In this document: in pieces, positions 25,381-64,000 of the stretch
Position numbering within the stretch: position 1 is the stretch's first letter
Layout of the letters: every line of letters starts with the position of its first letter
NCBI GenBank assembly: GCA_050250895.1
Contig: JBFWNU010000001.1
Coordinates: 1,640,008-1,704,007, forward strand
Length of the DNA: 64,000 bases
Direction: 5' to 3'
From: Vulcanimicrobiota bacterium
GTDB taxonomy: Bacteria > Vulcanimicrobiota > Xenobia > Xenobiales > JADMJV01
Notes under the pieces: model-generated
Databases searched by the model: none
Told to the model about the DNA's origin: nothing
What the model saw: the letters and a program-made list of their open reading frames with translations, nothing else
Program-made: the position numbers and the translations under genes

Positions 25381-26130
25381 ATGGGACTTCTCTCGCGCGA
25401 TACCTCGCCCGAAGCTGAAAAAGTTCAGTTTGACATCCTCCGACGCCGCGGCATGCAGGGGCGGCTGGTCCTGCTAGAAGAGGCGATGCTGACCGGCTGG
25501 GCTCTGGCTCGCATGGGGGTGGCCCAGCGGCACGGTGAAGGCGTGCCAGATGCCGACCAGGAGAAAGACGCGATGAAGCCACTGGAAACCCCGCTTGAGG
25601 TGACGCGGGTGCTCGACGCTTTGGCTATTCCCTATGTGGTCGGCGGTTCCTACGCCAGCAGCCTCCACGGGGAACCGCGCTCTACTCGCGATTGTGATCT
25701 GGTGGTGGAATTGGTCAAAGGGCATCTCGGTCGCTTTTGCCAGGCCCTCGAGGACAAATTCTACTTGAGTCGAGCAGCCATCGAAGAGGCCTTGGCTCGC
25801 AAGAGCACGTTCAATCTCATTCACTTTCAAACAGGTTTCAAGATCGACATCTTCGTCTCGGCTGGGCGCCCGTTCGACCGAGAGCGCATGGCCCGAGCCC
25901 TGGTTCTCGAGGTTGCCGGCCAACCGGTCAGATTCTCGACGGCCGAGGACACGATCCTGGCCAAATTGGAGTGGCAGGCTCTGTCGAACAGCGAACAGCA
26001 GTGGCGCGATATTCTCGGTATCGTCCTGCTAGCGGAAGACGGCTTGGACCGGGGCTATCTGCGCCATTGGGCAACCGAACTCGGTGTGCTTGAGCAACTC
26101 GAGCAAGCCTTCGCGGCGGTTAGCGAATAA
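25381..26130 (+). CDS. fused antitoxin-like + nucleotidyltransferase (MenAT2/DUF6036-like) protein
   Basis: N-terminal DTSPEAEKVQFDILRR module; GGSYASSLHGEPRSTRDCDLVV NTase motif; EDTILAKLEW, QWRDILG. Confidence 0.75.
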   Translation: MGLLSRDTSPEAEKVQFDILRRRGMQGRLVLLEEAMLTGWALARMGVAQRHGEGVPDADQEKDAMKPLETPLEVTRVLDALAIPYVVGGSYASSLHGEPRSTRDCDLVVELVKGHLGRFCQALEDKFYLSRAAIEEALARKSTFNLIHFQTGFKIDIFVSAGRPFDRERMARALVLEVAGQPVRFSTAEDTILAKLEWQALSNSEQQWRDILGIVLLAEDGLDRGYLRHWATELGVLEQLEQAFAAVSE

Positions 26131-27592
26131 ACGGGCCTTTGCCGAAAGGAGCGCCGCCCGTGCCGGGCCCCTTGGCGGCCCCGCGGTGGAACAGGTTGAA
26201 ACCGCAGGCCGGCATGATGCGGCCGTCGATCTGCGGGTAGTGATGACAGCACTTCATCAGCCGTTCGACATCGAAGTCGTGGCGGTCCATGTAATGGTGG
26301 ATGAAAATGGTCTTGACCTGGCGCTCGGCGATGCGGATCAGTTCCTGGCGGGGTAGATTCTGGTTGGGAAACATCTCGAGCAGGGCCCGGCGCATGGCCT
26401 TGATGATCTTCTGGCTGTCGGGCACTTCTCCCGCGGCGCTCCACAGGTCATCGATGACCTGGCGAATGGAGTCCTCAGTCTGGGCGTTGGGCTCGATGGT
26501 GGCCGTCTGGGCGAATAGATCGAGATGCTTGCGCATGTCGACAAAGCGAGGAAACGGCAAGAAGGTGCCGTCGCCCATATTGAGCAGGTAGGTCAGCGAC
26601 ACGCACAGCGGGTGCGAGCATGGCAGCGGGATGAAGTCTTCGCGGGCCACCGCTCCGTCGGTTTGCTCGTCGATGGCCCGGATGACTCCGGGAATGGTCA
26701 GCCGGTCCATCGGATCGTGCGGAAAGACGCCGCCCCCGTGGCCGGTGGCCGAGAAAGGCTGGATCAAGAGCGAGAGCACATGGTCGCGCTCCATTAGCAG
26801 GCGCACCGCGTCGCCCAGCTGGTGCTCGTTGACCCCCCGGGCCGGCACATAAGCGATCTGGGTCGAGATGCCCAGCTCGGCTAGATTTTCGAGGGCTTTC
26901 CACTTGGTCTCCATCAGCGGCACCCCGCGGATGGTCGTTTGGATCTCGTCGGTAAAGCCGTCGAGCTGCAAGATGACATAGACGTTGCGAGCCTTGAGTT
27001 GCTCGCAAAACTCGCGCGAGTTGGCGATGCGAATGCCGTTGGTCACCACCGACACGCGGCCGATTTCGGGCCGGGTGGCCATGTCCACCAGCTCGAGAAA
27101 ACGGGGATGGGAGGTGGGTTCGCCTCCGCTCAGGGTGATGGTCTCGAGACTGCCCTCGGCTTTGAGCAGCAGGTCGATGATGCCCTGGAAGTCGTCGTTG
27201 GTCATGTGGTTGGAATACTGGTTATTCACGATGCACACCGGGCATTCGAGGTTGCAGTGATCGGTGATCTCGACGATGGGCAGACAGGTGTGCTGCTGGT
27301 GGGCCGGGCACAGACCGCAGTCGGTGGGGCAGCCGGCCTTGACGGCGGTAGAGAAGTGCAAAGGGGTGCTGCCCGGCTTGATGTAGGAAAAGGCCTTCTG
27401 GTAATACTCGGCGTCTTCGCTGACCAGGGCTTCGCTATGGCCATGGTCGGGGCAGAACTTGAGAAAATAGACCTTGCCTTCGCGAAAGACCACCTGCGCC
27501 TGAATGATCTTGAGACACTCGGGGCAGCAGCTCATGGTCATCTTGAAGAAGGTGTAAGGGCGGTCGCCTCGGCAACAGGATGGACTGGTCAT
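26120..27592 (-). CDS. radical SAM protein, tetraether synthase (Tes/GDGT-MAS, MJ0619)-like, copy 1
   Basis: N-terminal CPEC...CPDH, CPTDCGLC auxiliary motif, CNLECPVC, GGEPT, PCSHPLC, C-terminal MDRHDFDVERLMKCCHH...DGRIMPACGFN. Confidence 0.85.
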   Translation of the reverse strand: MTSPSCCRGDRPYTFFKMTMSCCPECLKIIQAQVVFREGKVYFLKFCPDHGHSEALVSEDAEYYQKAFSYIKPGSTPLHFSTAVKAGCPTDCGLCPAHQQHTCLPIVEITDHCNLECPVCIVNNQYSNHMTNDDFQGIIDLLLKAEGSLETITLSGGEPTSHPRFLELVDMATRPEIGRVSVVTNGIRIANSREFCEQLKARNVYVILQLDGFTDEIQTTIRGVPLMETKWKALENLAELGISTQIAYVPARGVNEHQLGDAVRLLMERDHVLSLLIQPFSATGHGGGVFPHDPMDRLTIPGVIRAIDEQTDGAVAREDFIPLPCSHPLCVSLTYLLNMGDGTFLPFPRFVDMRKHLDLFAQTATIEPNAQTEDSIRQVIDDLWSAAGEVPDSQKIIKAMRRALLEMFPNQNLPRQELIRIAERQVKTIFIHHYMDRHDFDVERLMKCCHHYPQIDGRIMPACGFNLFHRGAAKGPGTGGAPFGKGPFIR

Positions 27593-27966
27593 GGGGTTTG
27601 CACTTCCTTCTGTTTCAGCTCGACCACCCGGGCCAGGCTGGCCACCGTGATGTGCGAGAAAAGATCGGCTGGATAGAGCGGTCGGGGAGCCTGACGCAGG
27701 CTGGGCAGCCATTCATACAGGCGCTCGAGGTCGGGTTCGCTCAGGGGACCCTGTTCTTGCTCGCTCAACTCGCCCCGCAATAGCCGGTCGAGCTCAGAGT
27801 TGCGCAACTTGACGCGAAAGCGTTTTTCCAGCGTAAAGAGCAGGTCGAGCAGGTCCAACGAGTCGGCGCCCAGGTCATCGAACAGGCGCGATTCGGACTG
27901 AACGTCGTCGGGGTCGAGGGCGAGCCGCTCGCACAGAACCGTTTGAACCGTTGCCACGACGCTCAC
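27589..27966 (-). CDS. acyl carrier protein with internal insertion
   Basis: DLGADSLD phosphopantetheine site; C-terminal ITVASL; 125 aa; its stop overlaps the radical SAM start (ATGA). Confidence 0.9.
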   Translation of the reverse strand: MSVVATVQTVLCERLALDPDDVQSESRLFDDLGADSLDLLDLLFTLEKRFRVKLRNSELDRLLRGELSEQEQGPLSEPDLERLYEWLPSLRQAPRPLYPADLFSHITVASLARVVELKQKEVQTP

Positions 27967-28255
27967 CCGGGCCTCACCTCGTCGCCATGGGTTGTTGAAA
28001 ACCGCCGAGACGCGGAGACGCTGAGGTTTTGACTCATCGTACGATGATGCGGAGCGGTGCGAGACCTGAGGTGGGCGGCAATGAATTGGTAGACATCCAC
28101 AGTGCCTGACGCTTCGCGGTGGGCTACTTCTTTACCCCCGCGGCCACTCCAGCCGGGAGGGTTGTTCGAGTCCCGGTTGGTTAATCAACCGGTCGAGCCG
28201 ACCCGCCCCGCTGGCACCGCCCCCTCGGCGCCAAGAGCTTGCGTAATGGCTGGGG

Positions 28256-28642: not shown

Positions 28643-28677
28643 TTAACCCTTTGGTCACAACTTGTTCACAAGGTTAA
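28643..28677. promoter_or_regulatory. candidate regulator binding site upstream of the ubiquitin-like operon
   Basis: TTGGTCACAA-C-TTGTTCACAA direct repeat (11-bp period) flanked by TTAACC...GGTTAA, in an AT-rich intergenic region. Confidence 0.4.
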
Positions 28678-28796: not shown

Positions 28797-29192
28797 TTGC
28801 AGTGTAGTTCCCATCCAGAAGTCGAGGCCACTACGCGTTGCGAAGGATGTGGCGAGCTGTTTTGCCACCAGTGCACCACCGAGGTGCGAGGCGAGAAATA
28901 CTGCCGGGCCTGCAAGCACATCCCCATCCTGGGCAATCCTATCGGCGCTCTCTCTGACCAGAGCCCTGGCGAAACCTGTCAACCGGCGGCCGAGGCCCTC
29001 AAGTTCGCCGTCATCGGAATGCTCTGCTGCGGAGCGATCATGGGCCCGCTGGCCGTCATCAAGGCGCTCGAAGCCAAGAAGCTCATCGAGAACGAGCCTC
29101 ACTATACCGGGGTCGGAATGGCCAATGCCGCGCTTTTGGTGGGCGGCATGGAGACTTTGATCTGGCTGGTTGGCCTGTTGGGGAACGGCTGA
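28797..29192 (+). CDS. B-box zinc finger + DUF4190-like membrane protein
   Basis: CSSHPEVEATTRCEGCGELFCHQC...YCRAC; two TM with GPLAVIKALEA...GVGMANAALLVG. Confidence 0.8.
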   Translation: MQCSSHPEVEATTRCEGCGELFCHQCTTEVRGEKYCRACKHIPILGNPIGALSDQSPGETCQPAAEALKFAVIGMLCCGAIMGPLAVIKALEAKKLIENEPHYTGVGMANAALLVGGMETLIWLVGLLGNG

Positions 29193-29824
29193 TGAGAGAG
29201 TTGATCTGCCCCGAGTGCCAGGCCGAGATCGTGGTGCTCGATGACAAGACCGCCTATTGCCCGCGCCACGGTGGCAAGTTCAAACTGTTGCATCTGGCTC
29301 CGGCCTCTCGGGTCGAACTGGCCCGTGAACTCGAGACGACGACGCCGGGGCCGGGAGTGGGCAACCAGAAGTGCCACTATCATCAGGAGGTCGACGCCAG
29401 GTTCTTGTGTCGTGGCTGCGGCAAGCCGTGTTGCCGACTGTGCACGTTTGCCATTGGAATGATGAAGCTGTGCGCCGATTGTGCCACCACCGGGCCCGAG
29501 CCGCTCATTCCCAAGCGTAAGAAACTCGTGGATAACGCCCTGCGGCTGGCCGGATTGGCCACCTTCTTCTTCGTGGGCATCATCGTCTTGTTGGTTTCGG
29601 GTAGCGATCTCTTAGCGATTCTGGGAGTGCTGGGGATCTTCTTGATTCCGTTCTTCGTCATGATCCCGTCGACGGTGGGCTTTTTCATGGCGCTAGAGGC
29701 GGTCGACCGACATCTCGAGAATCCTGTGGTGTTATGGGGGGCTCTCATCTGGAATGGTCTCATCTTTAGCATCTTTGCCTATCTGGGGCTGCGTTTCCTG
29801 GTGGCCCTGTTCCTGGGGGTATGA
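29192..29824 (+). CDS. zinc ribbon + B-box zinc finger membrane protein
   Basis: CPEC...CPRH; CHYHQEVDARFLCRGCGKPCCRLC...LCADC; three C-terminal TM helices. Confidence 0.8.
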   Translation: MRELICPECQAEIVVLDDKTAYCPRHGGKFKLLHLAPASRVELARELETTTPGPGVGNQKCHYHQEVDARFLCRGCGKPCCRLCTFAIGMMKLCADCATTGPEPLIPKRKKLVDNALRLAGLATFFFVGIIVLLVSGSDLLAILGVLGIFLIPFFVMIPSTVGFFMALEAVDRHLENPVVLWGALIWNGLIFSIFAYLGLRFLVALFLGV

Positions 29825-30492
29825 TCGTGCAATATGAGATTCACGCCGATACGACCTTTGCGGTGCGACGCCTGGCCATCACTCCCCAAGGGGTCGTCTA
29901 CACCCGCTCGATCGGGCAACCCCTGCACGTTCTCTACCCAGACATCACGGCTGTCCTGGTTTCGAGTACCGACATGCTGACCATTCACGCCAAAGGCGAG
30001 ATCATGCGTCTGGGGCTCAAGCCCGAGCACCAGCCGGCCCTGCAGGCGATGCTGGGTTATCTCAAAGCGGCCGTGCCCGAGGCCGAGGACGCCCTCGAGG
30101 CCACCTTTAGCGAGCACCCGCCCGAGCTACCGCCGGAAGAGCCGGTGCGCCAACCGGGTGGCCTCAAAGAAGTGAAGTTCGCTCCTATGTCGGCCCAAGA
30201 ATTGGCCGCGAGGCGACAGCCTCCGCCCGGAGCCCAGAACATTCCCGAGCCTAGCAAATTGGGACAGGTGAGTCCTCGAATCGGTTCCAAGCCGGTCTCG
30301 CTCGGTGTCGAAGGCTCGCCCCAGCCTAAGGCCCAGCCGGATCATGAGGCGATGTTGATGGAGCGCCGGGCCCGCCAATACGACCTGCCTCCCAGCGCGC
30401 CCCCCATTCCCAAGCCGGCTGCCGATAGCCCCAGCGGACCCATCAGCGCAGCCGAGATCATCAAGCGCAGGCAAGCGCGAGAGGAGAGCTAG
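29821..30492 (+). CDS. hypothetical protein (beta-rich, possibly PH-like N-terminal domain, Pro-rich tail)
   Basis: ATGA overlap with the preceding gene; stop abuts the Ubl start. Confidence 0.65.
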   Translation: MIVQYEIHADTTFAVRRLAITPQGVVYTRSIGQPLHVLYPDITAVLVSSTDMLTIHAKGEIMRLGLKPEHQPALQAMLGYLKAAVPEAEDALEATFSEHPPELPPEEPVRQPGGLKEVKFAPMSAQELAARRQPPPGAQNIPEPSKLGQVSPRIGSKPVSLGVEGSPQPKAQPDHEAMLMERRARQYDLPPSAPPIPKPAADSPSGPISAAEIIKRRQAREES

Positions 30493-30762
30493 ATGTCAGA
30501 GGTTCGCGTCAAGATTCTGGACGTTTCCGGCAGCCGCAGTCGTGAAGCCGAACTGCCGGCTGACGTGCCGGTCGAGCGCTTGCTCATTCTGCTGGTCGAA
30601 CGACTCGAACTGCCGCTCAACAGCCCCGACGGGCAGCTGATGGTCTACAAGCTTCACCATCGCGCCAGCGGGCGCCAGTTGCTCGATCACGAGACCCTGG
30701 GCCAGGCCCAGGTCAAGCACGGCGAAGAGTTGCGTCTGCAGCCGGAGATCATCGCTGGATGA
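30493..30762 (+). CDS. ubiquitin-like beta-grasp protein (EsaB/YukD-like)
   Basis: 89 aa; beta-beta-alpha pattern; LLDHETLGQAQVKHGEELRL parallels ubiquitin [20 protein letters not shown]; ends IIAG. Confidence 0.85.
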   Translation: MSEVRVKILDVSGSRSREAELPADVPVERLLILLVERLELPLNSPDGQLMVYKLHHRASGRQLLDHETLGQAQVKHGEELRLQPEIIAG

Positions 30763-31928
30763 CGATGACCCTGGCAGAGGGCCGCTTTGCTCGCTTCTCG
30801 CAGATCGGGTGGTGGAATCAAGAGCTGCTCGCTCGGGCTCGCGTACTGGTGATCGGAGCCGGCGCGCTCGGCAACGAAGTGGTCAAGAACCTGGCTTTGC
30901 TCGGGGTCGGCAATCTGGTCATCGCCGATATGGACACCATCGAGCTCTCGAATCTAAGCCGAAGTGTCCTCTTTCGGGCTGAAGACGAAGGCAAGGCCAA
31001 AGCCGAGGTGGCGGCCGCCGCCGCGCGCTCCCTCTATCCCGACATGAAGATTCAGGCGGTGGTGGTGAACGTGCTGGCAGGTTTGGGCCTGGGCTACTTC
31101 CGCTGGGCCCACGTCGTGGTGGGGGCCCTCGACAATCGCGAGGCGCGGGTCTTTGTCAACAGTCGCTGCGCTCAACTGGGCAAGGCCTGGTTCGATGGAG
31201 GCATCGAGGCGCTCAACGGGGTGGTGCGCGGCTTTTCGGCCCCCGACACGGCTTGCTATGAGTGCACCATGTCCAAGCAAGACTGGGAGCAGATCGAGAA
31301 ACGGCGCTCCTGCTCTTTGTTGGCCCGCCAAGCCCTGGCTCAGGGGACCATGCCGACGACGCCGACTACCGCCTCGGTGATCGGCGGGATGCAGGCTCAA
31401 GAGTTGGTGAAGTTCTTGCACCACGGTCACGACGAGTCGGCCTTGCTGGGCAAGGGCTTCTTTTTCGAAGGGCTGCGGCATTCGTCCTATCCCATCAGCT
31501 ATCGAATCAACCCCGAATGTCCCTGGCACGAGCCCGCCTGCTCCGTCGAGAGTTGCCCGCAGTTTTCGAGCCAGACCGTGATCGACGAGCTCTGGTCTTT
31601 CGCCGAGGAGCGCCTGGGTGGCCTGGACGGGCTGGATTTTTCGCGCGAGATGGTCGAGCGCCTCACTTGCCCGAGCTGTGGCGACGAGCGCCAACTCTAC
31701 AAAGCCCTGGACCACCTCAGCGAGGCTGACGCCCCCTGTCCCGAGTGTGGGCAAGAGTGCTTTCCGGCCCTTTTTCACGGGGTCCACGCCAGCAGCGCCG
31801 CCCGAGCTCAGACGCCGGCCCAGCTGGGTCTGCCGCGCTGGGACATCATCTGGGCTCGCCGTGGTGAGGAGTATCTCGGCCTCGAACTCAGCGGCGACCG
31901 GCCTGAAGAACTCGGGGTGCCGGCATGA
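30759..31928 (+). CDS. E1-like Ubl-activating enzyme (ThiF/MoeB/UBA family)
   Basis: GAGALG, DMDTIELSNLSRS, ALDNREAR, CYEC, candidate catalytic RRSC, CPWH; extra C-terminal CPSC/CPEC domain; no rhodanese domain. Confidence 0.92.
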   Translation: MTMTLAEGRFARFSQIGWWNQELLARARVLVIGAGALGNEVVKNLALLGVGNLVIADMDTIELSNLSRSVLFRAEDEGKAKAEVAAAAARSLYPDMKIQAVVVNVLAGLGLGYFRWAHVVVGALDNREARVFVNSRCAQLGKAWFDGGIEALNGVVRGFSAPDTACYECTMSKQDWEQIEKRRSCSLLARQALAQGTMPTTPTTASVIGGMQAQELVKFLHHGHDESALLGKGFFFEGLRHSSYPISYRINPECPWHEPACSVESCPQFSSQTVIDELWSFAEERLGGLDGLDFSREMVERLTCPSCGDERQLYKALDHLSEADAPCPECGQECFPALFHGVHASSAARAQTPAQLGLPRWDIIWARRGEEYLGLELSGDRPEELGVPA

Positions 31929-32974
31929 AAGTGGGCGAGTGGAACGAAGAAACCGAGTGGGCTCGCAAGGACTTTCCCGGCCCGGCCGGTGTCGACGAGA
32001 TTCTGCGCGTCACCTATGAGCGCGAGGCTCTGGCTGATGTGCACGGCCACGCCCGCGAGTTTCTCGAGAACGAAATCTGTGGGGTGCTGGTGGGTGAGGT
32101 CTGCCAGGACGGTCAAGGTCCTTTCGTCTGGGTGAAAGCGGCGATTCGCGGGGCCCACGCCAAGGAAAAGCGCACCGAGGTCGCTTTCACACAAGAGACC
32201 TGGGAGACCATCCACAAGACCAAGGACGAGCGCTATCCCAAGCTGCAGATTGTCGGTTGGTATCACTCTCACCCCGGCTTTGGCGTCGAATTCTCCGAGA
32301 TGGATATCTTCGTCCAGCAGAACTTCTTTCCGGCTCCTACTCAGATCGCGCTGGTGACCGACCCCCTGAGCGGCCAGCTGGCTATGCTGGTCTGCCGTGA
32401 CAAGAAGCCTGTCTATCTCGAGCGTTTCTGGGTCGACGGCCGGGAGCACCAGGCCCAAACGCCCAGAGTGGCGTCAGCCTCCGGGGGTGGCGCCCCCGAC
32501 CCGGCCACCGCCGAGAAGCTCAAGGCGGTCGAGACCCGCCTCAACCAGGTCATCGCCGCCGTGGATCGGCAGAGCACTTCACTGTATCGGTTCCAGGCGG
32601 TTGCTCTGGGCATGCTGTTTGCGGCGCTGGCGTCCGGCCTGGCCTACAACGTTTGGAACGCTAGCAGCAAGACCTACAAGCCGCCCACCCTCAACAGCTA
32701 CGCGCGGATTCCCGTCCAGGTTGGGGATCGCACCGTCTGGCTGGGCGTCCAGGTGGTCGACTGGGATGTGCCGCCTGAGCTCAACGCCGCTTACATCAAA
32801 GCGGTGGAACGAAGACTGCAACTCGATTTTCCGCCTCCGCAGCAAGCGGTCCAGCCGTCGAGCGATTCGACGCCAACCGCATCCGAGACCCCGACCGAGA
32901 CTTCCACCCCGGCCGAGCCAACGCCGGCCGAGACTTCGACCCCTGTTGACACAGCCACCCCTGAGGACCACTGA
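31925..32974 (+). CDS. JAB/MPN+ (Rpn11/CSN5-like) metalloisopeptidase with TM anchor
   Basis: NEICGVLVG and VGWYHSHPGFGVEFSEMD (E...HxH...S..D); coiled segment, TM, Thr/Pro-rich tail. Confidence 0.9.
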   Translation: MKVGEWNEETEWARKDFPGPAGVDEILRVTYEREALADVHGHAREFLENEICGVLVGEVCQDGQGPFVWVKAAIRGAHAKEKRTEVAFTQETWETIHKTKDERYPKLQIVGWYHSHPGFGVEFSEMDIFVQQNFFPAPTQIALVTDPLSGQLAMLVCRDKKPVYLERFWVDGREHQAQTPRVASASGGGAPDPATAEKLKAVETRLNQVIAAVDRQSTSLYRFQAVALGMLFAALASGLAYNVWNASSKTYKPPTLNSYARIPVQVGDRTVWLGVQVVDWDVPPELNAAYIKAVERRLQLDFPPPQQAVQPSSDSTPTASETPTETSTPAEPTPAETSTPVDTATPEDH

Positions 32975-32985
32975 AAGGACCCGCC

Positions 32986-34317
32986 ATGCCCGAGAGAGAG
33001 TTTGCCTTGAAGATCACCCGCGAAGAGGCGATGGGAGAGCACGTCGATGACCTGTTGAAGCGCCAGAAGAGCCTTCGAGGCGAGTCGGCCGGTATCGACC
33101 GAGGCGGCAAGAAGGTCTGGTTTTACCAGAACTGGTTCGTCTTCATGATTGCCGGTTTGCTAGGAGCCTTGCTGGCCTGGGGTCTGCTCGAGCCCGCTTT
33201 TCAGGACCGGATCGAATGGCGCGGCACCCTCGAGACCCTCGACCTGCAGTCGGTTGCACCAGAGGGGCTCGAGGGCCAGGTTCAGGGCAAGTGCAAGGTG
33301 CGTGGCCAGGTCATCTACTTCTATCGCGACATGAAGCTGGCGGGATCGGGTGCGCCCTTCGACGCCAGCCAATTATCCATCGGCCAGGAGGTGGCATTCT
33401 ATATCGAGGGTGACGCAGTAGCCACCTATGTCGATCCAAATCCCCACGGGTCGTATTCTACCAGCAAGAGCCTGAGCGAACTCAGCAGTGCCTCGACCAT
33501 GGCGGCCATGGTGCTCTTTCCGCTGGTCGCCGGTATGGTGGGTCTTTTCATCGGAGCCGCCGACGGACTGGTCAGCCGGCTCATGGGTCGGGCCCTGGTC
33601 TGTGGTGGAGTGGGCCTGGTGGTGGGACTGATCGGCGGAGTCTTCTCTACCATCCTGGCCACCCTGGTCTACAATCTGCTGTCGGGGTGGGCCACCGATC
33701 ACACGGGCACGGCCGTGGCCGGCCTGAGCCTGTTCGGCTTCATGATGCAGGTGATCGCTCGCGCGCTGGGCTGGGCCCTGGCCGGACTGACCATGGGGCT
33801 GGGCCAGGGGATCGCCCTGCGTTCGTCGCGACTGGCCACTTACGGTCTGTTGGGCGGCGTCATCGGAGGTTTGCTGGGCGGGTTGTGCTTTGACCCCATC
33901 GACCTGCTGTTGCTGGGTGGCGACGGCCAGGTGAGCGCCCACCTGAGCCGCGGCGTCGGCATCGGCGTGATCGGCGCCGTGGTCGGCTTCACCATCGGCA
34001 TCGTCGAGCTGCTGGCTCGCGACAGCTGGCTGCAGATGCTCAAGGGGCCCCTTACCGGCAAGGAATTTCTGCTCTACAAAGACACGATGGTGCTGGGCGC
34101 CTCTCCCAAGTGCGACATCTATCTTTTTAGCGACGACCAGGTGCTGCCGATGCACGGCCAGATGCGCAGCGTGGGCGAAGAGACCGAGATCGAATCGCTG
34201 GACAGCGAAAATCCGGTTCTGGTCAACGGCCGGCCGGTGACCAGGTGTCGCCTCAACGGAGGCGATCAGATCACCATCGGCAAGACGGTCTTCTCCTACC
34301 GAAAGAAAAATCGATGA
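32986..34317 (+). CDS. multi-pass Gly-rich membrane protein with C-terminal FHA domain
   Basis: About 7 Gly-rich TM helices; GPLTGKEF...LGASPKCDIYL...H...VNG...LNGGDQITIG. Confidence 0.85.
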   Translation: MPEREFALKITREEAMGEHVDDLLKRQKSLRGESAGIDRGGKKVWFYQNWFVFMIAGLLGALLAWGLLEPAFQDRIEWRGTLETLDLQSVAPEGLEGQVQGKCKVRGQVIYFYRDMKLAGSGAPFDASQLSIGQEVAFYIEGDAVATYVDPNPHGSYSTSKSLSELSSASTMAAMVLFPLVAGMVGLFIGAADGLVSRLMGRALVCGGVGLVVGLIGGVFSTILATLVYNLLSGWATDHTGTAVAGLSLFGFMMQVIARALGWALAGLTMGLGQGIALRSSRLATYGLLGGVIGGLLGGLCFDPIDLLLLGGDGQVSAHLSRGVGIGVIGAVVGFTIGIVELLARDSWLQMLKGPLTGKEFLLYKDTMVLGASPKCDIYLFSDDQVLPMHGQMRSVGEETEIESLDSENPVLVNGRPVTRCRLNGGDQITIGKTVFSYRKKNR

Positions 34318-53510: not shown

Positions 53511-56126
53511 TCAGGCTGCCTCGTCGGAGGCGGCGAATTGGGCAAAGATAGAGCCGGCCAGGGCACGAAAGCCCAGTACCGAAGGCGAAGCGATCTCGGC
53601 GGCCTGGGCCGGCAGGCGGGGCCGCTCGACGAAAAAGTCGGGAAAGTTCTGGGCGAAGGTGTCAAAGTCAGTGACGAAGGCCTCAAGATCTGGAGAGATG
53701 CCGGGCCGGAAGATGGGCGCCTCGATTCCGCGCGCGTCGAAGAGGGAGCGGACCACCGCGTTCTGGGCCGAGGCGCTGCCGCGGTGATAGGGGGTGGCCT
53801 GGGCCAGCAGCCAGTTGACCCGGGCAACCGCGTCCACCGTCTCGTCCAGGGGCAGATTGGGGTCGAGCGCCCGGCGGTAGAAGTCATCGGCCAGATCGAG
53901 CAACCGCCGGCCGGTGGCCGGCGAGGTGTGGACCCAGGCGAACGGCACGCCCTCCGAGTTGCGCAGTACCGGCGTCAACTCCAGGAGCTCGTCTCCGATT
54001 TGTAGCGAGCTGGCGGCGCCGACTCTATCGCGAATGGTCACGGCCCCACCGGCGTCTCCGTAGCGTCCGGTGATCGGAGTACGGGTCAAGATGGTCGGGT
54101 CATCCGCCCGCTCGACCAGAAAGCTGTCGTCGAAATGCTCGCGACCAAAGGCTCCCAGCGGACCTTCGGCCAGCTGGTCGAGGGCCTCTCGGAGAGTGGC
54201 CGGAGGGTTCTCGGCCAGGGCCCGAGTGGCTTCTTGAATCGTCTCGAGATAGGCGGGGTCAGTGGAATATCCCTGACTGAAGATCTGAAAGCGGGCTTGG
54301 TCGTCGAAGGGGTTGCCGGTGAAGATGGGGTTGCCGTACTCATCGAGGTGGCTGAGATCGATGACGCCGTCGACGCGGCCCGCCTCGACGATCTCGTCGG
54401 CGACGGTGGCGGCTTCGGCCACCTCGTCAGCGAAGGTGGCGGCCTCGGCCACCTCGTCGACCAGACCGGCCCCGTGAGCGCCAGCAAGCCCGCCTCCGGT
54501 GGCGACCTCGGTCAGAACTTCAAAGGCAACCGCTCCGGCGATGCCCGCCACGCCGTGCTCTTCAAGAATCGGCCGGAAGGATTCGAGCAGAAGCTCGGGT
54601 TGGGTGGCCACGTAGCCCAGCCCGGTGATGACCTGGCCCGGCTGGGTGACGATGGTGCCCAGTCCCTCAACGGTGCCGGCGGCGGCTTCTCCGAAACCAC
54701 CGAAGAAGTTGTCGACCTGATGGGTGACCAGCGCGCTCGCCTGGTCTGAAGCCAGGTCGATCTGGTCCCCGGCGGTCCGGACCTGAGCGGCCAGTCCCTC
54801 GGCGCCAACCGCGTCCAGAGCCCTACCGGCCAGTCCTGACAGCCCCTGGGCGCCGGCCCCCACGGCCGTATCGAGCAACTCGAGTGGAAGGCTGAACTGG
54901 TCGGCCACTCCCTGAGAGATGTCCCGCACTGCCTGCCCGACCAGCCCCGTGACCGCCTCGACCCCGGTCGAGACGGCCAGGTCGAGACCGTCGAGCGCCT
55001 GGTTGGTCACCCGGTCAAGATTGTCGGCCAGGCCATCGGCGCCCAGCAGACGCGCGCCGCCTTCGACGACTTCTTCGAAAGCCTCGATCGGGGCGGTGAA
55101 TACGCTGGTGACGAGGTTGTGGTCGAACTGTTCACCCACCCAGCCAAAAGCCCGGCGCACGCCATTGCTCACGTCCTCGCTCAGGTCGTCGAAGAACTCG
55201 TCGGCCTGGTCACCGGTCTGGCGAACCTGGTCGGCCAGACCGTCAGCCCCGACCAGGTCCAGAGTCGCCCCACTCAGGCCGGTCACGGCGTCGTTGACCA
55301 GACTGGCCAGGGCGATCCCACCGGTGGCGGGGTTGACCAGGTCGGTGATGGTGTGACCGAGGTCCGAAAACGCGTTGCCGACACGCTGCCAGGCGCTATC
55401 GTCGGCGCGCCGGATCGAGGTGATCGCCTCGTCGAGTTCGCCCAGCGCCGAATTGGCGCTCTGCTCGAGGTGAGGAGCTAGAGCAGGATGCCTTTCCAGC
55501 AGTTCGGGTAGCTGCTCGCCGAAGGTGGCCAGGGCCTGATCGGCCTCTTCATCTCCTTCGGCCCCGTCGAGCAGGTCTTCCAGGCGGGTTTCAAGATGCT
55601 GGCTGAGCAGGGTGCCGACCCGCTGCTGAGTGTCTTCATTCTGGTTGTTGTAGAGCAACCGTTGAAAGCCAAGAGCGGTGGGAATCTGCTCGAACTCTTC
55701 AAAGCTCTCGACGGTCTGGTCGAGGGCCGACTGGGCCGCCTGGCCCACCTCTTCGTCTTCTTCGGCCAACTGGGCCAGAGCCAGGTACTCGTCGTCACTC
55801 AGCCCATCCAGGGTCTCTGAATCGCGCAGGTCGTCGGCGAGCTGGGCGGGGTCAGCGGCCCAGTCATCGTAGATCTCCTGCGCGGGAGTCGGGTTGCGGC
55901 TGTCTTCGCGCAGCTCCTCCGTCTGGGGGGTCAGTTCTCTTCGAACCGGAGCGGCCTTCGAACTCGTTTCGCCCGCTTCACGCCGGCCTTTGGCGGCGGG
56001 GGCCGCTTTGCTCTTGGCTTGAGCGGAGGCCTGGCCGTTGCCACTGGCCTTCGAGGTCGCTTTGGAGGCGGCGCGGGCCTTGGCCCGTGACGGGCCGGTG
56101 GATTGAGAAGTGCCTTTGACTAGCAT
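53511..56126 (-). CDS. large effector/polymorphic-toxin-like protein with C-terminal AvrB-like Fido domain
   Basis: Low-complexity N-terminus, internal helical repeats, hydrophobic pre-toxin-like segment; C-terminal WLLAQATPYHRGSAS...RGIEAPIFRPGISPDLEAF. Confidence 0.7.
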   Translation of the reverse strand: MLVKGTSQSTGPSRAKARAASKATSKASGNGQASAQAKSKAAPAAKGRREAGETSSKAAPVRRELTPQTEELREDSRNPTPAQEIYDDWAADPAQLADDLRDSETLDGLSDDEYLALAQLAEEDEEVGQAAQSALDQTVESFEEFEQIPTALGFQRLLYNNQNEDTQQRVGTLLSQHLETRLEDLLDGAEGDEEADQALATFGEQLPELLERHPALAPHLEQSANSALGELDEAITSIRRADDSAWQRVGNAFSDLGHTITDLVNPATGGIALASLVNDAVTGLSGATLDLVGADGLADQVRQTGDQADEFFDDLSEDVSNGVRRAFGWVGEQFDHNLVTSVFTAPIEAFEEVVEGGARLLGADGLADNLDRVTNQALDGLDLAVSTGVEAVTGLVGQAVRDISQGVADQFSLPLELLDTAVGAGAQGLSGLAGRALDAVGAEGLAAQVRTAGDQIDLASDQASALVTHQVDNFFGGFGEAAAGTVEGLGTIVTQPGQVITGLGYVATQPELLLESFRPILEEHGVAGIAGAVAFEVLTEVATGGGLAGAHGAGLVDEVAEAATFADEVAEAATVADEIVEAGRVDGVIDLSHLDEYGNPIFTGNPFDDQARFQIFSQGYSTDPAYLETIQEATRALAENPPATLREALDQLAEGPLGAFGREHFDDSFLVERADDPTILTRTPITGRYGDAGGAVTIRDRVGAASSLQIGDELLELTPVLRNSEGVPFAWVHTSPATGRRLLDLADDFYRRALDPNLPLDETVDAVARVNWLLAQATPYHRGSASAQNAVVRSLFDARGIEAPIFRPGISPDLEAFVTDFDTFAQNFPDFFVERPRLPAQAAEIASPSVLGFRALAGSIFAQFAASDEAA
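54391..54459. repeat. 30-bp in-frame tandem repeat (about 2.3 copies)
   Basis: ATCTCGTCGGCGACGGTGGCGGCTTCGGCC / ACCTCGTCAGCGAAGGTGGCGGCCTCGGCC / ACCTCGTCG; encodes DEVAEAAT(F/V)A. Confidence 0.85.
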
Positions 56127-59140: not shown

Positions 59141-59869
59141 TCAGGAGCCGGCCGTGAACCCGCCGTCAACACCGAAGGTGGCTCCGGTCACGAACGAAGC
59201 CCGCTCGCTAAGCAGAAAGACGACCATCTCGGCCACCTCTTCAGGTCTGCCGAGGCGGCCCATGGGAATCTTGGCGAGAATCTTCTGGCCGGCTGCCTGG
59301 AAGGCTTTGGCCAGCATGGGCGTGTCGGTGGGGCCGGGCTCGACACAGTTCACCCGGATGCCAAAGCGCGCATACTCGCTGGCCAGAGCCCGGGTCAGGG
59401 CCGCCAGCCCCCCTTTGCTGGCCGCGTAGACAGCCTGGCCGGCATGGGCGCGCTGCTGGCTGACCGAGCCGAGATTGACGATCGAGCCGCCGCGCTTTTG
59501 CATCATACCGGGTAGGATCGCTCGGCAACAGTGGATGGGACCCAGCAGGTTGGTGTCGAGTTGGGCCCGGATCTGGTCCAGGCTGAGGGTGGGCAAGAGG
59601 CCGGCGTGATGGATGGCCGCGTTGTTGACCCAGCCGTCGAACTCTTCAAGCCAGTCGCCGCAGGCAGCCTCGATCGAGTCGGGATCGGTCACGTCGAGGT
59701 GGGCGGCTCGGGCTCGCAGTTCGGTGGCCAGTTGGCTGGCAGCTTCGGGGTGGCGGTGATAGCCCAGCAGCAGCCGAGCTCCGGCCCGGGCGCAGGCGCG
59801 GGCAATGGCTTGACCGATAGCCCCGGTGGCGCCGGTGATGGCGATGGTCTTGCCGGCCAGCTCAGCCAA
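59141..59869 (-). CDS. fabG: 3-oxoacyl-ACP reductase (FabG-like SDR)
   Basis: [31 protein letters not shown]; TTG 59869 lies just after the trpS stop. Confidence 0.85.
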
Positions 59870-59871
59870 GC

Positions 59872-60948
59872 TCAGAAGTTCATGTTCATCGCGGTGCGCA
59901 CTTCGTCGAGGGTGGCCTGAGCCACCGCCCGGGCTTCTTCGACGCCCCGGCGCAGCACTCGAGAGACCAGCTCGGAGTCCTTTGCCAGCTCGGCACGCCG
60001 TTCGCGCAGGGGCTTTAGGTATTCGTTGAGGGCTTCGGTCATGGTGGTCTTGAGCTTGCCGGCCCCGCCGTCGCCGATGTCGCCCGCGATGTCCTGGGGA
60101 GAGCGACCGGTGCATAGACTGGTCACCAGCAGCAGATTGGCCACCTCGGGTCGGTTGTCGGGGTCGTAGGTAATGACTCGCTCGGAATCGGTCTTGGCCT
60201 TCTTGATGAGCTTGGCCGTCTCGTCGGCACTGGCGCCCAGCATGATGGCATTATTGCGGCTCTTGCTCATCTTCTGGCCGCCGTCGAGCCCGAGGATCAT
60301 GGGGGCCTCGCTCAGCAATGGGTGGGGCTCGGGAAAGACTCTCTTCTTCTTGGCGAAGCGCTGGTTGAAGCGACGAGCGATCAGCCGGCTCATCTCGAGG
60401 TGAGGGATCTGGTCTTTGCCCACCGGCACCAGGTTGGCTTTGCAGAACAGGATGTCGGCTGCCTGATGGACCGGATAGGTGTACATGCCAGCGTTGATAT
60501 TCTTGAGGCCGGCGGCCTGGATCTCGTCTTTTACGGTGGGATTGCGATCGAGTTCGGCCATGCTCACCAGGGTGAGAAAGGGCAGCAACAGCTGGTTGAG
60601 CTCGGGGATGTGGCTGTGGGGAAAGATGACGCACTGCTCGGGGTCGATGCCGGCGGCCAGATAGTCGAGGGTGAGCTCGCGCACGTTGTTGGCGATCTCG
60701 GCGAAGCTATCGCGATCGGTGAGCACCTGATAGTCTGCGATCACGATGAAGATGGGCACACCCAGGCCCTGCAGGCGCACCCGATTGTTGAGCGAGCCGA
60801 AAAGGTGCCCGATGTGGAGCGCCCCGGTGGGGCGGTCGCCGGTGAGCACGCGGAACTTCTTGGGATTGACCTTGAGTTCTTCTTCGATCTCCTGGCTACG
60901 GGCCAGGGTCGCGGCATAGGTGTCGGAAATGGTGGCCGGGCTTGTCAT
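59872..60948 (-). CDS. trpS: tryptophanyl-tRNA synthetase (TrpRS II type)
   Basis: [35 protein letters not shown]. Confidence 0.96.
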
Positions 60949-60975
60949 ACTGCGGCCGTTCGCTTGCGGGCCGGG

Positions 60976-62172
60976 TTACCCCTGTCCGAGCACCAGGCAC
61001 GCGTTCTGGCCGCCAAAGGCAAAGGAGTTCTTGAGCATCAGGCCGGCGGCCGGCAGCGGCCGGGGACCTTCGGGGATATAGTCGAGGTCGCAGGCCGGGT
61101 CGGGTTGCTCGAGATTGATGGTGGGATGCACCAGGCCTCGTCGGGCGCAGGCCAGGGTGGCTGCCACCTCTACCGCTCCCGAGGCCGAGATGAGGTGGCC
61201 CAGCATCGACTTGGTCGAACTCACCCACAGACGCTCGGCGTGGGCCCCGAAGACGGCGCGCAGGGCCAAGGTTTCGATGGGATCGTTCTTGGGGGTCGAG
61301 GTGCCGTGGGCGTTGACGTAGGCGATCTGCTCGGGTCTCACGGCGGCGTTGGCCAGGGCCCGCCGCATGGCCAGCACAGCCCCCAGCCCCCGGGGGTGAG
61401 GCTCGCTGATGCCGTGAGCGTCAAACGAGTTGCCGAAGCCCAGCACCTCGCCGTAGCAGGTGGCCCCGCGGGCCTGGGCCGAGGCTTGCTCTTCTAGCAA
61501 CAACACGGCCGCGCCCTCGCCCAGCAAAAAGCCGTCGCGGCCTCGATCAAACGGTCGCGAGGCTTGCTCGGGTCGTTCATTGCGGGTGGTAGTGGCTCGA
61601 ATCTTGCAAAAGCCGGCCACTCCCATGGGGTTGATCATCGAGTCGCTACCGCCGGCCAGCATCCACCGGCGCTGACCTCGGCGGATGGTCCAAAAGGCGG
61701 TGCCGATGGCATCGGTCGAGGCGGCACAGGCCGAGATGTGGGTCTGAGGTGGATAGCTCAGGTTGAAGCGCCGGGAGATGGCTTCGATGCAAAGCTCGGA
61801 GGGGGTCTGGAGAAAGGTCTGGGGGTCGGCCCCAGGGGGCAGGCCATGATGATGCAGGTATTGGACCAGGTCAGGCATCGAGAAGAGATCGAGGCCGATG
61901 CCCAGGCTCAGGCCGCCAAGGCTGGGGTCGAGGGTCTGGCCGGCCATGGCTTGCTCGCTGGCGGCCAGAGCGAAGCTCCATTTGCGGTCGGGATGCTCTG
62001 GCAGGCCGGCGGTGTCGACCTGGGCGGCGATGCGCGTGGCCAGTCGAGCGGGCTCGAAGAGAGTGATGGGGCCGGCGCCCGAGCGTCCCGCCAGCAGGCC
62101 GTCGGCCAGAGCATCCAGAGAGTTGCCCAAAGGGGTGACCACCCCGATGCCGGTCACCATGACCCGCTTCAT
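60976..62172 (-). CDS. fabF: beta-ketoacyl-ACP synthase II-like (KS)
   Basis: SACAAS (Cys), NAHGTST and KSMLGH (His-His), RPFDRGRDGFLLGEG, NSFAFGGQN. Confidence 0.9.
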   Translation of the reverse strand: MKRVMVTGIGVVTPLGNSLDALADGLLAGRSGAGPITLFEPARLATRIAAQVDTAGLPEHPDRKWSFALAASEQAMAGQTLDPSLGGLSLGIGLDLFSMPDLVQYLHHHGLPPGADPQTFLQTPSELCIEAISRRFNLSYPPQTHISACAASTDAIGTAFWTIRRGQRRWMLAGGSDSMINPMGVAGFCKIRATTTRNERPEQASRPFDRGRDGFLLGEGAAVLLLEEQASAQARGATCYGEVLGFGNSFDAHGISEPHPRGLGAVLAMRRALANAAVRPEQIAYVNAHGTSTPKNDPIETLALRAVFGAHAERLWVSSTKSMLGHLISASGAVEVAATLACARRGLVHPTINLEQPDPACDLDYIPEGPRPLPAAGLMLKNSFAFGGQNACLVLGQG

Positions 62173-62945
62173 GGCTGCCACCGGCAGGCCACCGTCAGGC
62201 CGTCGGGAGTGTGGGCCCGGTGGGACCATTGCTGCTGACTGAGCTGATGGATCAACTCGGCCGGGCCCCAGGGCGAAGGCGAGGCAACCTGCCCGTCATA
62301 GGCGATGGAAAACTCGTGCAGGCGGGCCAGGCCCGGGCCTTTGCGCAGGCAGAGAAAGCCGGCCACGTCCTGGCCAGGGGGGTGACTGCGGCGTTGGCGG
62401 TGGTAGTCGACCAGAAAGTTGTTCTGGTCGGCCACCGCTCCCACTATAGCAAGCTCGATTTGGCCTTCTTGCAGGGCCCAAAGAGCCTGCTCGAGCACCT
62501 GGTAGAACTGGCCCAGGCCGGGAAAGCTGGTCATCGAAGGCCCCCGGATGCCCAGGTTGAGCGAGACGTGAAAGATCGGCATGTTGGGCAGACAGCGAAA
62601 GGTCAACAGCGGATTGACCTGATCCAGCCCGTCGCTCGAGAAGCGTTCCATCGAGAAGACTCCCTGTTCGGTCGAGTGCTCGGCCAAAGGCAGCATGTCG
62701 TCTTTTTCAAACGGGATGTGGCCGCTCACCAGATAGAGGCCGGCCTGCTCGAGAGCCCCGGGGTCGAGGTCGGCCTGGGCGGCTGCCTGGCAGGCGGCAG
62801 CCACGGCCAATCGGTCTTGTTTGCCCATGAACTTGAGCATCTTGCGCGACCTGAGCCAGGGGATGCAGTCGACGGGGTCCTGGCACAAAGCCAGTCCGGC
62901 CAGGCTTATCGAATCGCAAAGTCGAGCTTGAGGTGGCGTGTCCAC
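62169..62945 (-). CDS. truncated ketosynthase-like / chain-length-factor-like protein
   Basis: KFMGKQDRLAVAAA, NPLLTFRCLPNMPIFHVSLNLGIRGP; KS N-domain only, no catalytic Cys motif seen. Confidence 0.75.
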   Translation of the reverse strand: MDTPPQARLCDSISLAGLALCQDPVDCIPWLRSRKMLKFMGKQDRLAVAAACQAAAQADLDPGALEQAGLYLVSGHIPFEKDDMLPLAEHSTEQGVFSMERFSSDGLDQVNPLLTFRCLPNMPIFHVSLNLGIRGPSMTSFPGLGQFYQVLEQALWALQEGQIELAIVGAVADQNNFLVDYHRQRRSHPPGQDVAGFLCLRKGPGLARLHEFSIAYDGQVASPSPWGPAELIHQLSQQQWSHRAHTPDGLTVACRWQP

Positions 62946-63376
62946 AGGCTGTAGAGCTCCCGTCGTTGCTCGTGCACCCGAGGCGAGTCGACGGCCCGCA
63001 GCACGAAGGTCAAAAGGGCCCTGGCCACCTGTTGCTCGCCCAACTGGATGCGGCCCTCGACCTGGGCCGCGCCACCCAGGCTAGAAGACAGCTCGCAAGA
63101 TAGGCTGAGCACATCGCCGGGCCGGGCTGGATGGGTAAAGCGGGCCTGATCGATCTGGGCTAAAATGGCGCGTTGCTGGGGGTCTTCGCAATGCGAGATG
63201 TCCACCAGAAAGCCTCCCAACTGAGCCAACGCCTCCACCATCAGCGTGCCCGGAAAGAGCGGGTGACCGGGAAAATGGTCGTGCAGATAGTCTTCGCTCA
63301 GGCTGACGGCCTTGACGCCCCGGATGCTTTGACCGGGGATCAACTCGTCCACCCGGTCGACCAGAAAGAATCGCAC
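62906..63376 (-). CDS. fabZ: 3-hydroxyacyl-ACP dehydratase (FabZ-like)
   Basis: FFLVDRV, HFPGHPLFPGTLMVEALAQ, PARPGD. Confidence 0.9.
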   Translation of the reverse strand: MRFFLVDRVDELIPGQSIRGVKAVSLSEDYLHDHFPGHPLFPGTLMVEALAQLGGFLVDISHCEDPQQRAILAQIDQARFTHPARPGDVLSLSCELSSSLGGAAQVEGRIQLGEQQVARALLTFVLRAVDSPRVHEQRRELYSLWTRHLKLDFAIR

Positions 63377-64000
63377 CTACCACCTCCGACCGGCGCCCAG
63401 TAGCTCCAGCGGTGGGCTGGGCCGGTGGGCAAAGCGCGGGTCGCGGGCCCGATAGAGGATGTTGTAAGAGCAGGTGGGCACGTTGCCGCCATCGGCCGAG
63501 GGCACGCCCACGCAGCACTGGCGAATGCGGTCGGTATCGAAATTCTCTTCGTCCATGTGCGAGTGGATGTAGATGGTCTTGGCCGAACGTTCGGCGATCA
63601 GCTGTTGCTCGGCATACTCCAGGGGACGGTTTGGAAAGATGCGACAGATGAGGTCTTTGAGGGCTTTGAGCACGCGCTCGCCGGTGTCGTCGGGAAGTTC
63701 GCGGCTCCACAGATCGGCGATGACGCCTTGCATGGCCTCTTCCATCCTGGCTCCGGGTTCCATGTAGAGATTGTCGGTGAGCAGGTGGCGGATGACGGGT
63801 TTATCCATGAAGCGCGCGAAAGGCAAAAAATCGCCCTGCCCCAGGTTGAGTAGGTAACAGGTCTGGTAGCACATCGGGTGGGCGCACGGCGAGGGCACGA
63901 AGTCGGCTTTGGCGATGCGGCCGCCGCTGGCTTTCTCGATGGAAGCCAGCACATCCGGCACGGTGATGCGGCTGTTGGGGTCAAAGTCGGTGCCCCCCTG
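63377..64000 (-). CDS. radical SAM protein, Tes/GDGT-MAS-like, copy 2 (5' part outside window)
   Basis: Frame open to the window edge; DPNSRITVP, PCAHPMC, KTIYIHSHMDEENFDTDRIRQCC...DGGNVPTCSYN aligns with the C-terminal half of 26120-27592. Confidence 0.85.
   Translation of the reverse strand, partial: QGGTDFDPNSRITVPDVLASIEKASGGRIAKADFVPSPCAHPMCYQTCYLLNLGQGDFLPFARFMDKPVIRHLLTDNLYMEPGARMEEAMQGVIADLWSRELPDDTGERVLKALKDLICRIFPNRPLEYAEQQLIAERSAKTIYIHSHMDEENFDTDRIRQCCVGVPSADGGNVPTCSYNILYRARDPRFAHRPSPPLELLGAGRRW

Follow-up and report, generated by a model that had tools for sequence, protein, structure and literature searches.

A fragmented, cross-phylum gene cluster with two Tes-like radical SAM proteins as a candidate source of a nitrogen-containing lipid in a Vulcanimicrobiota bacterium

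The genome of a Vulcanimicrobiota bacterium (G000; 99.6% complete) encodes two proteins resembling tetraether synthase (Tes), an enzyme of the radical S-adenosylmethionine (SAM) type, which are designated here Tes1 and Tes2. Their genes lie, together with an acyl carrier protein (ACP) gene and a fatty acid synthase (FAS)-like operon, in a stretch of 64,000 nucleotides (nt) on contig C1 (positions 1640008-1704007; the window), the second of them crossing its end. Coordinates below are window positions unless they carry a prefix. Our analysis makes it reasonably probable that G000 carries, in fragmented form, a conserved cluster of approximately 13-16 genes that has spread horizontally and would make a rare nitrogen-containing lipid or lipid-like alkaloid by radical SAM chemistry. 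Carbon-carbon coupling of the Tes type is among the hardest reactions in lipid biochemistry. Enzymes of this type are tied to the tetraethers of archaea, and by hypothesis only to the brGDGTs (branched glycerol dialkyl glycerol tetraethers) of bacteria, which serve as palaeoclimate proxies.

Results

The proteins of the window were compared by tblastn with seven other loci long enough to judge (G018, G401, G402, G403, G404, G405 and L027). Homologues of both halves of the G000 gene set, one around Tes1 and the other comprising Tes2 and the FAS-like operon, were found in a single cluster of 12-22 kb in seven other genomes with five phylum-level labels. The carriers are labelled Vulcanimicrobiota, Burkholderiales, Pyrinomonadaceae (two), Betaproteobacteria, Turneriella and Acidimicrobiaceae. 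Tes1, an aminotransferase, at least two short-chain dehydrogenases/reductases (SDRs), FabZ, a protein resembling a chain length factor (CLF), FabF and a long ACP occur together in all seven clusters. Tes2 is present in six of them, and in four of the five cluster-bearing genomes that were searched whole. The usual order is SDR, Tes1, aminotransferase, radical SAM/SPASM enzyme, (flavin-containing monooxygenase (FMO)-like enzyme), SDR, (second aminotransferase), SDR and small membrane protein, followed by Tes2, FabZ, CLF-like protein, FabF, FabG, (nitroreductase) and ACP. In its compact form (G404) the cluster consists of 13 genes on one strand within 12.8 kb. The first-pass annotation of the window had treated the Tes genes, the ACP and the FAS-like genes as one unit, and the compact clusters in the seven other genomes bear this out. 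That the two halves form one functional unit is strongly supported. It is scarcely credible that unrelated radical SAM, ACP and fab-like genes have come to lie in the window by coincidence. Their pieces in G000 are 4-18 kb apart and split by ThiF/JAB, secretion, two-component and glycoside hydrolase genes, but the same set is contiguous in seven other genomes from several phyla, and both the long ACP type and the nitroreductase (at E 1e-10) are single-copy in the G000 genome. Chance adjacency was rejected on the basis of this synteny.

The G000 cluster, which uses only the minus strand, is broken into five pieces spread over approximately 50 kb, from 17985 to 68079. The pieces are split by blocks of 4, 13 and 18 kb, a plus-strand open reading frame (ORF; 25354-26130), an AAA_14/DUF4143 gene and trpS. 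The span of 26120-64000 assigned in the first-pass annotation does contain the Tes, ACP and FAS-like genes, but it includes approximately 30 kb of unrelated genes and leaves out members on both sides. Five pieces with foreign genes interposed might represent a decaying remnant whose product is no longer made, which we regard as distinctly unlikely: none of the 15 member ORFs is disrupted or shortened relative to its orthologues, the stop/start overlaps are kept at ACP/Tes1 and CLF/FabF, one strand is used throughout, and the essential single-copy trpS is located within the FabF-FabG operon, so that this stretch would have to be transcribed. In G018, a relative from the same order, the orthologues of Tes1 (82-83% identity) and Tes2 (68-70%) are located approximately 19 kb apart on one contig. 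An insertion of approximately 8 kb with a 1780-aa opposite-strand ORF parts FabZ from the CLF-like gene there (L022:5028-10370, minus strand); clusters are disrupted in both genomes of this order. The ORF at 25354-26130 (plus strand) encodes 258 aa without a family match and fills a gap of 740 bp between Tes1 and the FMO gene, which abut in G018. The AAA_14/DUF4143 ATPase gene (L001:2934-4091, plus strand; window-equivalent 64934-66091) lies between the small membrane protein and Tes2 and is absent from the other clusters.

The Tes1 gene (26120-27592, minus strand) encodes a protein with the Pfam domains Zn_ribbon_HMPTM and Radical_SAM. The whole ORF extends from 26120 to 27712 on the minus strand, and the zinc ribbon begins at residue 56. 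The ACP gene ends in a TGA that overlaps the ATG at 27592 (ATGA), which makes the coupled form of 490 aa starting at Met41 the likely product. A sequence search matched Tes1 to PDB entry 7tol (E 3e-71). The AlphaFold2 model of Tes1 (pLDDT 80, pTM 0.85) aligned over the full length of 7tol/7tom with a TM-score of 0.76 at 30% identity, the next listed entries reaching at most 0.39. Tes1 orthologues from loci L024-L033 are 52-83% identical.

The adjoining ACP gene (27589-27966, minus strand) matches the PP-binding family (PF00550, E 6e-11), and the coupling of a Tes-like gene to an ACP, as read in the first-pass annotation, was thereby confirmed. The serine of the DSLD motif is residue 36, and D35-S36-L37 is invariant in all 20 sequences. 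All 24 homologues are long (122-170 aa) and share the invariant motif DLGxDSLD and a conserved C-terminal extension. The structure model (pLDDT 80) displays a four-helix ACP fold with inserted helices at approximately 77-105, an insert of approximately 45 extra residues, and matches FAS-type ACPs. In six of the seven other clusters (G401, G402, G403, G404, G405 and L027) the ACP follows FabG or the nitroreductase and ends the Tes2-FAS operon. In G000 and G018 it directly precedes Tes1 with overlapping stop and start codons (ATGA and TGATG, respectively). A single ACP gene links both halves of the cluster. Complex prediction for Tes1 and the ACP returned a score of 0.00 in both runs, which were performed without controls.

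Tes2 was first found as a paralogue in a tblastn search with Tes1 (63449-64000). The window contains its C-terminal 208 codons (63377-64000, minus strand), and the gene extends to window-equivalent position 64831. The full ORF (L001:1377-2831, minus strand) encodes 484 aa with Zn_ribbon_HMPTM and Radical_SAM domains; it is 37% identical to Tes1, and its orthologues show 49-69% identity. Tes2 abuts FabZ-, CLF- and FabF-like genes, trpS and a FabG-like gene in a same-strand operon, as had been noted before, the Tes2 gene itself ending beyond the window. The FabZ-like hot-dog dehydratase gene (62906-63376, minus strand) starts immediately after the Tes2 stop codon without a gap; its product matches Pfam FabA (E 3e-19) and scores 102-103 bits with the fabZ models, below their cut-off. 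The following gene (62169-62945, minus strand) encodes a truncated, CLF-like ketosynthase (KS) partner, which has a weak N-terminal ketoacyl-synt match (E 3e-6) and PDB similarity of only E 5.5e-5. As read in the sequence, it has no cysteine at the KS active-site position. The CLF-like proteins of the clusters comprise 258-324 aa. The FabF-like KS gene (60976-62172, minus strand) overlaps the CLF stop codon in an ATGA and encodes both ketoacyl-synt domains with the Cys-His-His residues. The protein scores 388 bits with the fabF model (cut-off 494), its best PDB match is Thermus FabF (342 bits), and it is 41% identical to the other FabF of G000 (contig C6). An active KS adjoins a Cys-less KS-like protein in all eight clusters, as in type II KS/CLF systems. 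A KS distinct from the genome's other FabF together with a Cys-less partner suggests a FAS-like synthase dedicated to the cluster. The last gene of the operon (59141-59869, minus strand) encodes a FabG-like 3-oxoacyl-ACP reductase of the SDR family (adh_short_C2, E 1e-63; FabG models 191-196 bits, below cut-off) and starts with TTG 2 nt past the trpS stop codon.

The trpS gene (59872-60948, minus strand) follows FabF after 27 nt and encodes a tryptophan-tRNA ligase (TIGR00233, 254 bits, above the cut-off of 177). It was listed with the FAS-like genes in the first-pass annotation but is not a member of the pathway. No second trpS was found in the genome, and none of the seven other clusters contains one, which makes it an embedded housekeeping gene whose position is incidental. 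A role as self-resistance copy was rejected on the same grounds, the genome being 99.6% complete. The essential trpS would depend on transcription through the biosynthetic operon.

Both Tes-like proteins share the architecture of the archaeal glycerol dialkyl glycerol tetraether-macrocyclic archaeol synthase (GDGT-MAS/Tes; MJ0619; 7TOL, 7TOM; NF045702), consisting of a rubredoxin-like zinc ribbon (PF23545), an N-terminal auxiliary cluster, a radical SAM core (PF04055) and a C-terminal auxiliary cluster. The four metal sites of GDGT-MAS are described as CX2C...CX2H, CX3CX2C plus His, CX3CX2C and a C-terminal Cys (PMC9433317). The corresponding motifs (CxxC...CxxH, CxxxCxxC plus His, CxxxCxxC of the radical SAM core and the C-terminal Cys) are invariant in all eight Tes1 and all seven Tes2 orthologues, in agreement with the four motifs previously reported for copy 1, and their columns are common to the clade that passes the NCBIfam Tes model. 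Neither protein reaches the Tes cut-off of 450 bits (Tes1, 277; Tes2, 255), nor does any other G000 protein in a whole-genome search. The scores with the TrsS model are nearly the same (Tes1, 282; Tes2, 257) and are likewise below cut-off.

The Tes superfamily comprises 506 representatives at E <= 1e-30. A tree of 117 sequences was calculated with FastTree from 94 of the 150 listed representatives (430-620 aa), 21 locus proteins and the two proteins of G000, after removal of three partial or duplicate rows. In this midpoint-rooted, in effect unrooted tree, which contains no named archaeal Tes or Mss and whose clades were labelled via the NCBIfam scores of 20 representatives, the Tes1 (8) and Tes2 (7) orthologues are each monophyletic and lie in a 42-tip clade (support 0.985) within a 54-tip clade (1.0). 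A separate 29-tip clade (0.993) contains the only Tes-passing representatives, P0243 (556 bits) and P0263 (593 bits), and the only TrsS-passing one, P0252, of the 20 tested. Judged by scores and tree, Tes1 and Tes2 are members of the superfamily and not Tes orthologues; they probably work in a way related to GDGT-MAS. The assignment to the Tes family in the first-pass annotation therefore stands as far as fold and metal sites are concerned, but not for the strict family, against which NCBIfam scores, tree and two signature residues speak. Phylogeny had been named there as a check, and the position of both proteins outside the Tes-passing clade goes partly against the original proposal. In another family of the phylum, a protein of this superfamily (L052, G044:C78; also in G049, G053, G056 and G038) falls inside the clade passing the true Tes model, and some members may have a genuine Tes-type enzyme.

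The two signature residues are Met439 and Tyr459 of GDGT-MAS. According to PMC9433317, the C-terminal cluster has Met439 as its labile ligand, and both residues are conserved across 1,000 homologues from archaea, yet dispensable in vitro. When positions are mapped with an offset of 20 residues, deduced for the 7tol chain from the PDB alignment, the Met439 column is occupied by His in Tes1 (8/8) and Tes2 (7/7), and the Tyr459 column by Tyr in Tes1 (8/8) and Val in Tes2 (7/7). The histidine at the Met439 site indicates that the environment of the C-terminal cluster differs from that of GDGT-MAS, which favors an alternative view of the chemistry: the Tes-like enzymes might act on an ACP-bound chain by inserting sulfur taken from the C-terminal cluster, as LipA and BioB do, or by some other radical reaction, for instance desaturation, epimerisation or methylthiolation. 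LipA and BioB act on substrates held on carrier domains, and the ACP coupling of Tes1 is reminiscent of this. Moreover, the TrsS scores equal the Tes scores, and the coupling reaction of GDGT-MAS itself proceeds via a carbon-sulfur bond to the C-terminal cluster as intermediate (PMC9433317). We nevertheless consider this alternative unlikely. Among the genes of the cluster, none for sulfur handling or cluster repair was seen, and the presence of two paralogues plus a SPASM enzyme is no better explained. TrsS (NF045646), a radical SAM (seleno)protein, resembles the G000 proteins in score, and its Val at the Tyr459 site is common with Tes2. In contrast, both proteins score below the TrsS cut-off of 490, P0252 groups with the Tes clade and the TrsS-type representatives keep Met439 (4/4).

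Several further members, which the first-pass annotation had missed, complete the cluster and bear on its product: a third radical SAM enzyme, the aminotransferase(s), additional SDRs, the FMO, the nitroreductase and the membrane protein. The third radical SAM enzyme (17985-18995, minus strand) is of the radical SAM/SPASM type. It is 58% identical to the product of L028:12949-13983, which has Pfam Radical_SAM and a weak SPASM match; its best NCBIfam matches are SPASM-type maturases, all below cut-off, and a homologue is present in six of the seven other clusters. The class III (omega-type) aminotransferase (22930-24186, minus strand; 418 aa) matches Aminotran_3 (E 2e-86), and its best NCBIfam match is the aminotransferase part of PigE (380 bits, cut-off 850). 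One or two homologues are found in each of the seven other clusters. The FMO-like flavin oxidoreductase (24273-25382, minus strand; Pyr_redox_3 and FMO-like) has homologues of 44-49% identity in three of the seven (G018, G403 and G401) and a 30% match in the partial locus L029. The nitroreductase-family flavoenzyme (40710-41321, minus strand) is a displaced member, 44-58% identical to the product of a gene that lies beside FabG/FabF and the ACP in five of the seven other clusters; the L031 homologue matches Pfam Nitroreductase with E 2e-32. Beyond the window, a small polytopic membrane protein (window-equivalent 66069-66578) with a homologue in six of the seven and two SDRs (66575-67282 and 67279-68079) are encoded on the minus strand.

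In a protein atlas, the small membrane protein matched clusters from Myxococcota and Acidobacteriota, all of them either unnamed or labelled 'transmembrane'. Its neighbour in L027, L028 (14783-15916) and L033 is another polytopic membrane protein, of 377 aa and with His-rich motifs; no homologue of the larger protein was found in G000. Pfam and NCBIfam returned nothing for these two proteins or for the ORF at 25354-26130. The Turneriella cluster, which has no Tes2, includes a fusion protein of 559 aa (L031:18172-19851, plus strand), in which an SDR is joined to a region resembling HalD/WelO5-like 2-oxoglutarate-Fe(II) halogenases/oxygenases (weak matches).

A scan of species-representative genomes yielded ten loci with Tes1 relatives, of which eight show 73-83% identity and one 52%. 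The scanned loci are labelled Acidobacteriota, Burkholderiales, Vulcanimicrobiota, Pyrinomonadaceae (two), Bdellovibrionales, Betaproteobacteria (complete), Turneriella and Acidimicrobiaceae. Public data hold more than 120 protein clusters with at least 55% identity to Tes1. Within lineages the genes are rare. No match above 31% identity was found in any of 15 genomes of the same family. Throughout the phylum, 58 of 401 genomes have some Tes-superfamily match (one of them, G359, unpublished), and an orthologue is present only in G000 and G018. In the family of G404, matches at E <= 1e-40 occur in three of 81 genomes, and above 47% identity in G404 alone. Genes that are so similar between phyla and yet so rare inside a lineage point to horizontal spread of an accessory trait.

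This distribution is relevant to the idea that Tes1 and Tes2 are true bacterial synthases of tetraether or membrane-spanning lipids, joining the tails of ordinary or FAS-cluster-derived lipids to iso-diabolic-acid or brGDGT-type lipids. A membrane-spanning lipid had also been among the products considered in the first-pass annotation. We regard this as very unlikely. Both proteins score below the Tes cut-off and belong to a supported clade apart from the passing representatives; within the G404 family only one of 81 genomes carries an orthologue, and within the phylum of G000 only two of 401; and the aminotransferases, the FMO, the nitroreductase and the third radical SAM enzyme have no role in such a pathway. 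Some of the carriers are taxa that are not known to make tetraether or membrane-spanning lipids. The GDGT-MAS architecture with its metal sites and the conserved membrane protein speak for such a synthase, as do the published hypothesis linking bacterial Tes homologues to brGDGTs (PMC8941075, PMC10087280) and the label Pyrinomonadaceae on two carrier bins, cultured members of this family being described as producers of iso-diabolic acid (PMC13159169). The rarity within the G404 family and the extra enzymes disfavor a general role as iso-diabolic acid synthase. Such rarity is more readily reconciled with a specialised lipid or polyketide that bears nitrogen than with a membrane-spanning lipid of the core type. 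The extra conserved enzymes and the patchy distribution argue for a nitrogen-containing specialised product and against a membrane-spanning core lipid.

The interval of 28-59 kb contains genes unrelated to the cluster, among them a B-box/ThiF/JAB/FHA/RING set, a methyltransferase, T2SS-F and two-component proteins and an AvrB_AvrC-domain protein. The first of these groups (29192-34874, plus strand) comprises genes for a B-box zinc finger, ThiF (E1-like), a JAB/MPN peptidase, an FHA-domain protein and a prokaryotic RING finger, and it resembles a system for ubiquitin-like conjugation or deconjugation in bacteria. The AvrB_AvrC match (E 2e-19) covers residues 727-832 of an 871-aa protein (53511-56126, minus strand), the remainder of which has no family match. 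A 1634-aa protein with transglutaminase-core, DcrB and HEAT-repeat matches is encoded at 10145-15049 (minus strand). Genes for a fatty-acid-hydroxylase-family membrane protein, an ABC ATPase and an ABC-2 permease (15165-17988, plus strand) converge on the radical SAM/SPASM gene. In G000 they could serve the cluster as an accessory for export or tailoring; no homologues were seen in the other loci.

Discussion

From this gene content we infer a pathway that would act on an ACP-bound substrate. The FabF-like KS with its Cys-less partner and the FabZ- and FabG-like enzymes would build a chain on the long ACP. This chain may retain some unsaturation or hydroxyl groups, given that the cluster has no recognisable enoyl reductase. 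Amine groups would then be put at carbonyls by the PigE-like aminotransferase(s) and two further FabG-like SDRs. In many clusters, FMO and nitroreductase-type enzymes may carry out oxidations and process nitrogen and oxygen functions. Tes1, Tes2 and the SPASM enzyme would subsequently modify unactivated carbons of the chain. By analogy with GDGT-MAS, the likeliest reaction would be formation of a C(sp3)-C(sp3) bond, either as ring closure or tail-to-tail, via a cluster-bound C-S intermediate. Such a pathway would yield a specialised lipid or lipid-like alkaloid that is rare and contains nitrogen. The conserved small polytopic membrane protein suggests that this product probably acts in or at the membrane. 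More tentatively, Tes1 and Tes2, possibly as a pair, and the SPASM enzyme may forge sp3 C-C bonds on the ACP-made chain and yield an undescribed carbocyclic or dimerised amino lipid, a bolaamphiphile or a lipid alkaloid. As part of this possible but rather doubtful scenario, a bacterial branch of the tetraether-synthase superfamily would have been recruited into secondary metabolism.

Several points weigh against the proposed nitrogen-containing lipid. The proposal is made from sequence, in which the chemistry cannot be read. Scores below cut-off and the position in another clade mean that the reaction may differ from coupling, for example sulfur insertion or desaturation. The cluster has no recognisable gene for an enoyl reductase, an acyltransferase, a thioesterase or a thioester reductase, so that chain release and the site of amination lack an account. 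A Tes2 orthologue was not found in the whole Turneriella genome (G402), and the pair is thus not obligatory. The broken cluster of G000 may be weakly expressed, or its parts may not be expressed together; a search for sequencing runs covering 22930-27966 listed none. Finally, some taxon labels of the carriers are those of metagenome bins and may be misassigned; the complete Betaproteobacteria genome and the Turneriella contig of 4.8 Mb are the firm cases.

The analysis describes a supported bacterial clade of Tes-like proteins with its own carrier, chain-building and amine-forming enzymes, encoded in a cluster that moves between phyla. As a concrete 13-gene unit, the cluster offers a starting point for finding new radical chemistry that forms C-C (or C-S) bonds on chains of the fatty or polyketide type, and it points to a likely new family of nitrogen-bearing lipids from soil bacteria. 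If the superfamily has indeed been recruited into secondary metabolism, the 'bacterial Tes homologues' used as brGDGT markers in environmental surveys would include a clade with a different job.

Known systems share parts of this arrangement. GDGT-MAS acts on archaeal diether lipids, whereas Tes1 and Tes2 come from bacteria, and their genes form part of a cluster with an ACP and with type II FAS-like and aminotransferase genes. Bacterial Tes homologues are treated only as candidate enzymes for brGDGTs or membrane-spanning lipids in the relevant passages of six papers (PMC8941075, PMC10087280, PMC13159169, PMC13274423, PMC11868695, PMC13459092), and these passages do not mention an ACP, KS or aminotransferase context. 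In the literature searched, no description of a Tes-like enzyme in a KS/ACP/aminotransferase cluster was found. Mss from Thermotoga and Thermoanaerobacter is, like the proposed enzymes, a radical SAM protein joining fatty acyl tails and is described as keeping the Tes catalytic architecture (PMC13274423, PMC13459092). By the same descriptions it is set apart because it acts without a dedicated FAS/aminotransferase cluster.

The koreenceine (kec) cluster of Pseudomonas koreensis is comparable in that it encodes a non-canonical type II system, with an ACP, ketosynthases matched to partial ketosynthases (CLF), reductases and an aminotransferase, and is described as turning a fatty or polyketide chain into a nitrogen heterocycle (PMC6498172). 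This likeness is by description: no radical SAM enzyme is mentioned in the corresponding passages, and KecF has its own reductase domain, whereas the aminotransferase of G000 is plain. The putative ladderane cluster I of anammox bacteria (KustE3603-3608) differs from the G000 cluster in several respects. Its radical SAM enzyme is B12-dependent (PMC13459092) and thus appears to be of a different class, both of its KS subunits are described with the FabF-monomer fold (10.64898/2026.05.19.726425) whereas the CLF here is truncated, the passages on ladderanes report no aminotransferases, and its host range is quite unlike that of the Tes1/Tes2 cluster. In gene types, however, to which this comparison is limited, ladderane cluster I likewise combines a dedicated ACP, a FabZ homologue and radical SAM enzymes (10.64898/2026.05.19.726425; PMC13459092), the latter being thought to reshape the chain, and it pairs an active FabF with a dead FabF as chain length factor (10.64898/2026.05.19.726425), much as the active KS and its Cys-less partner adjoin each other here.

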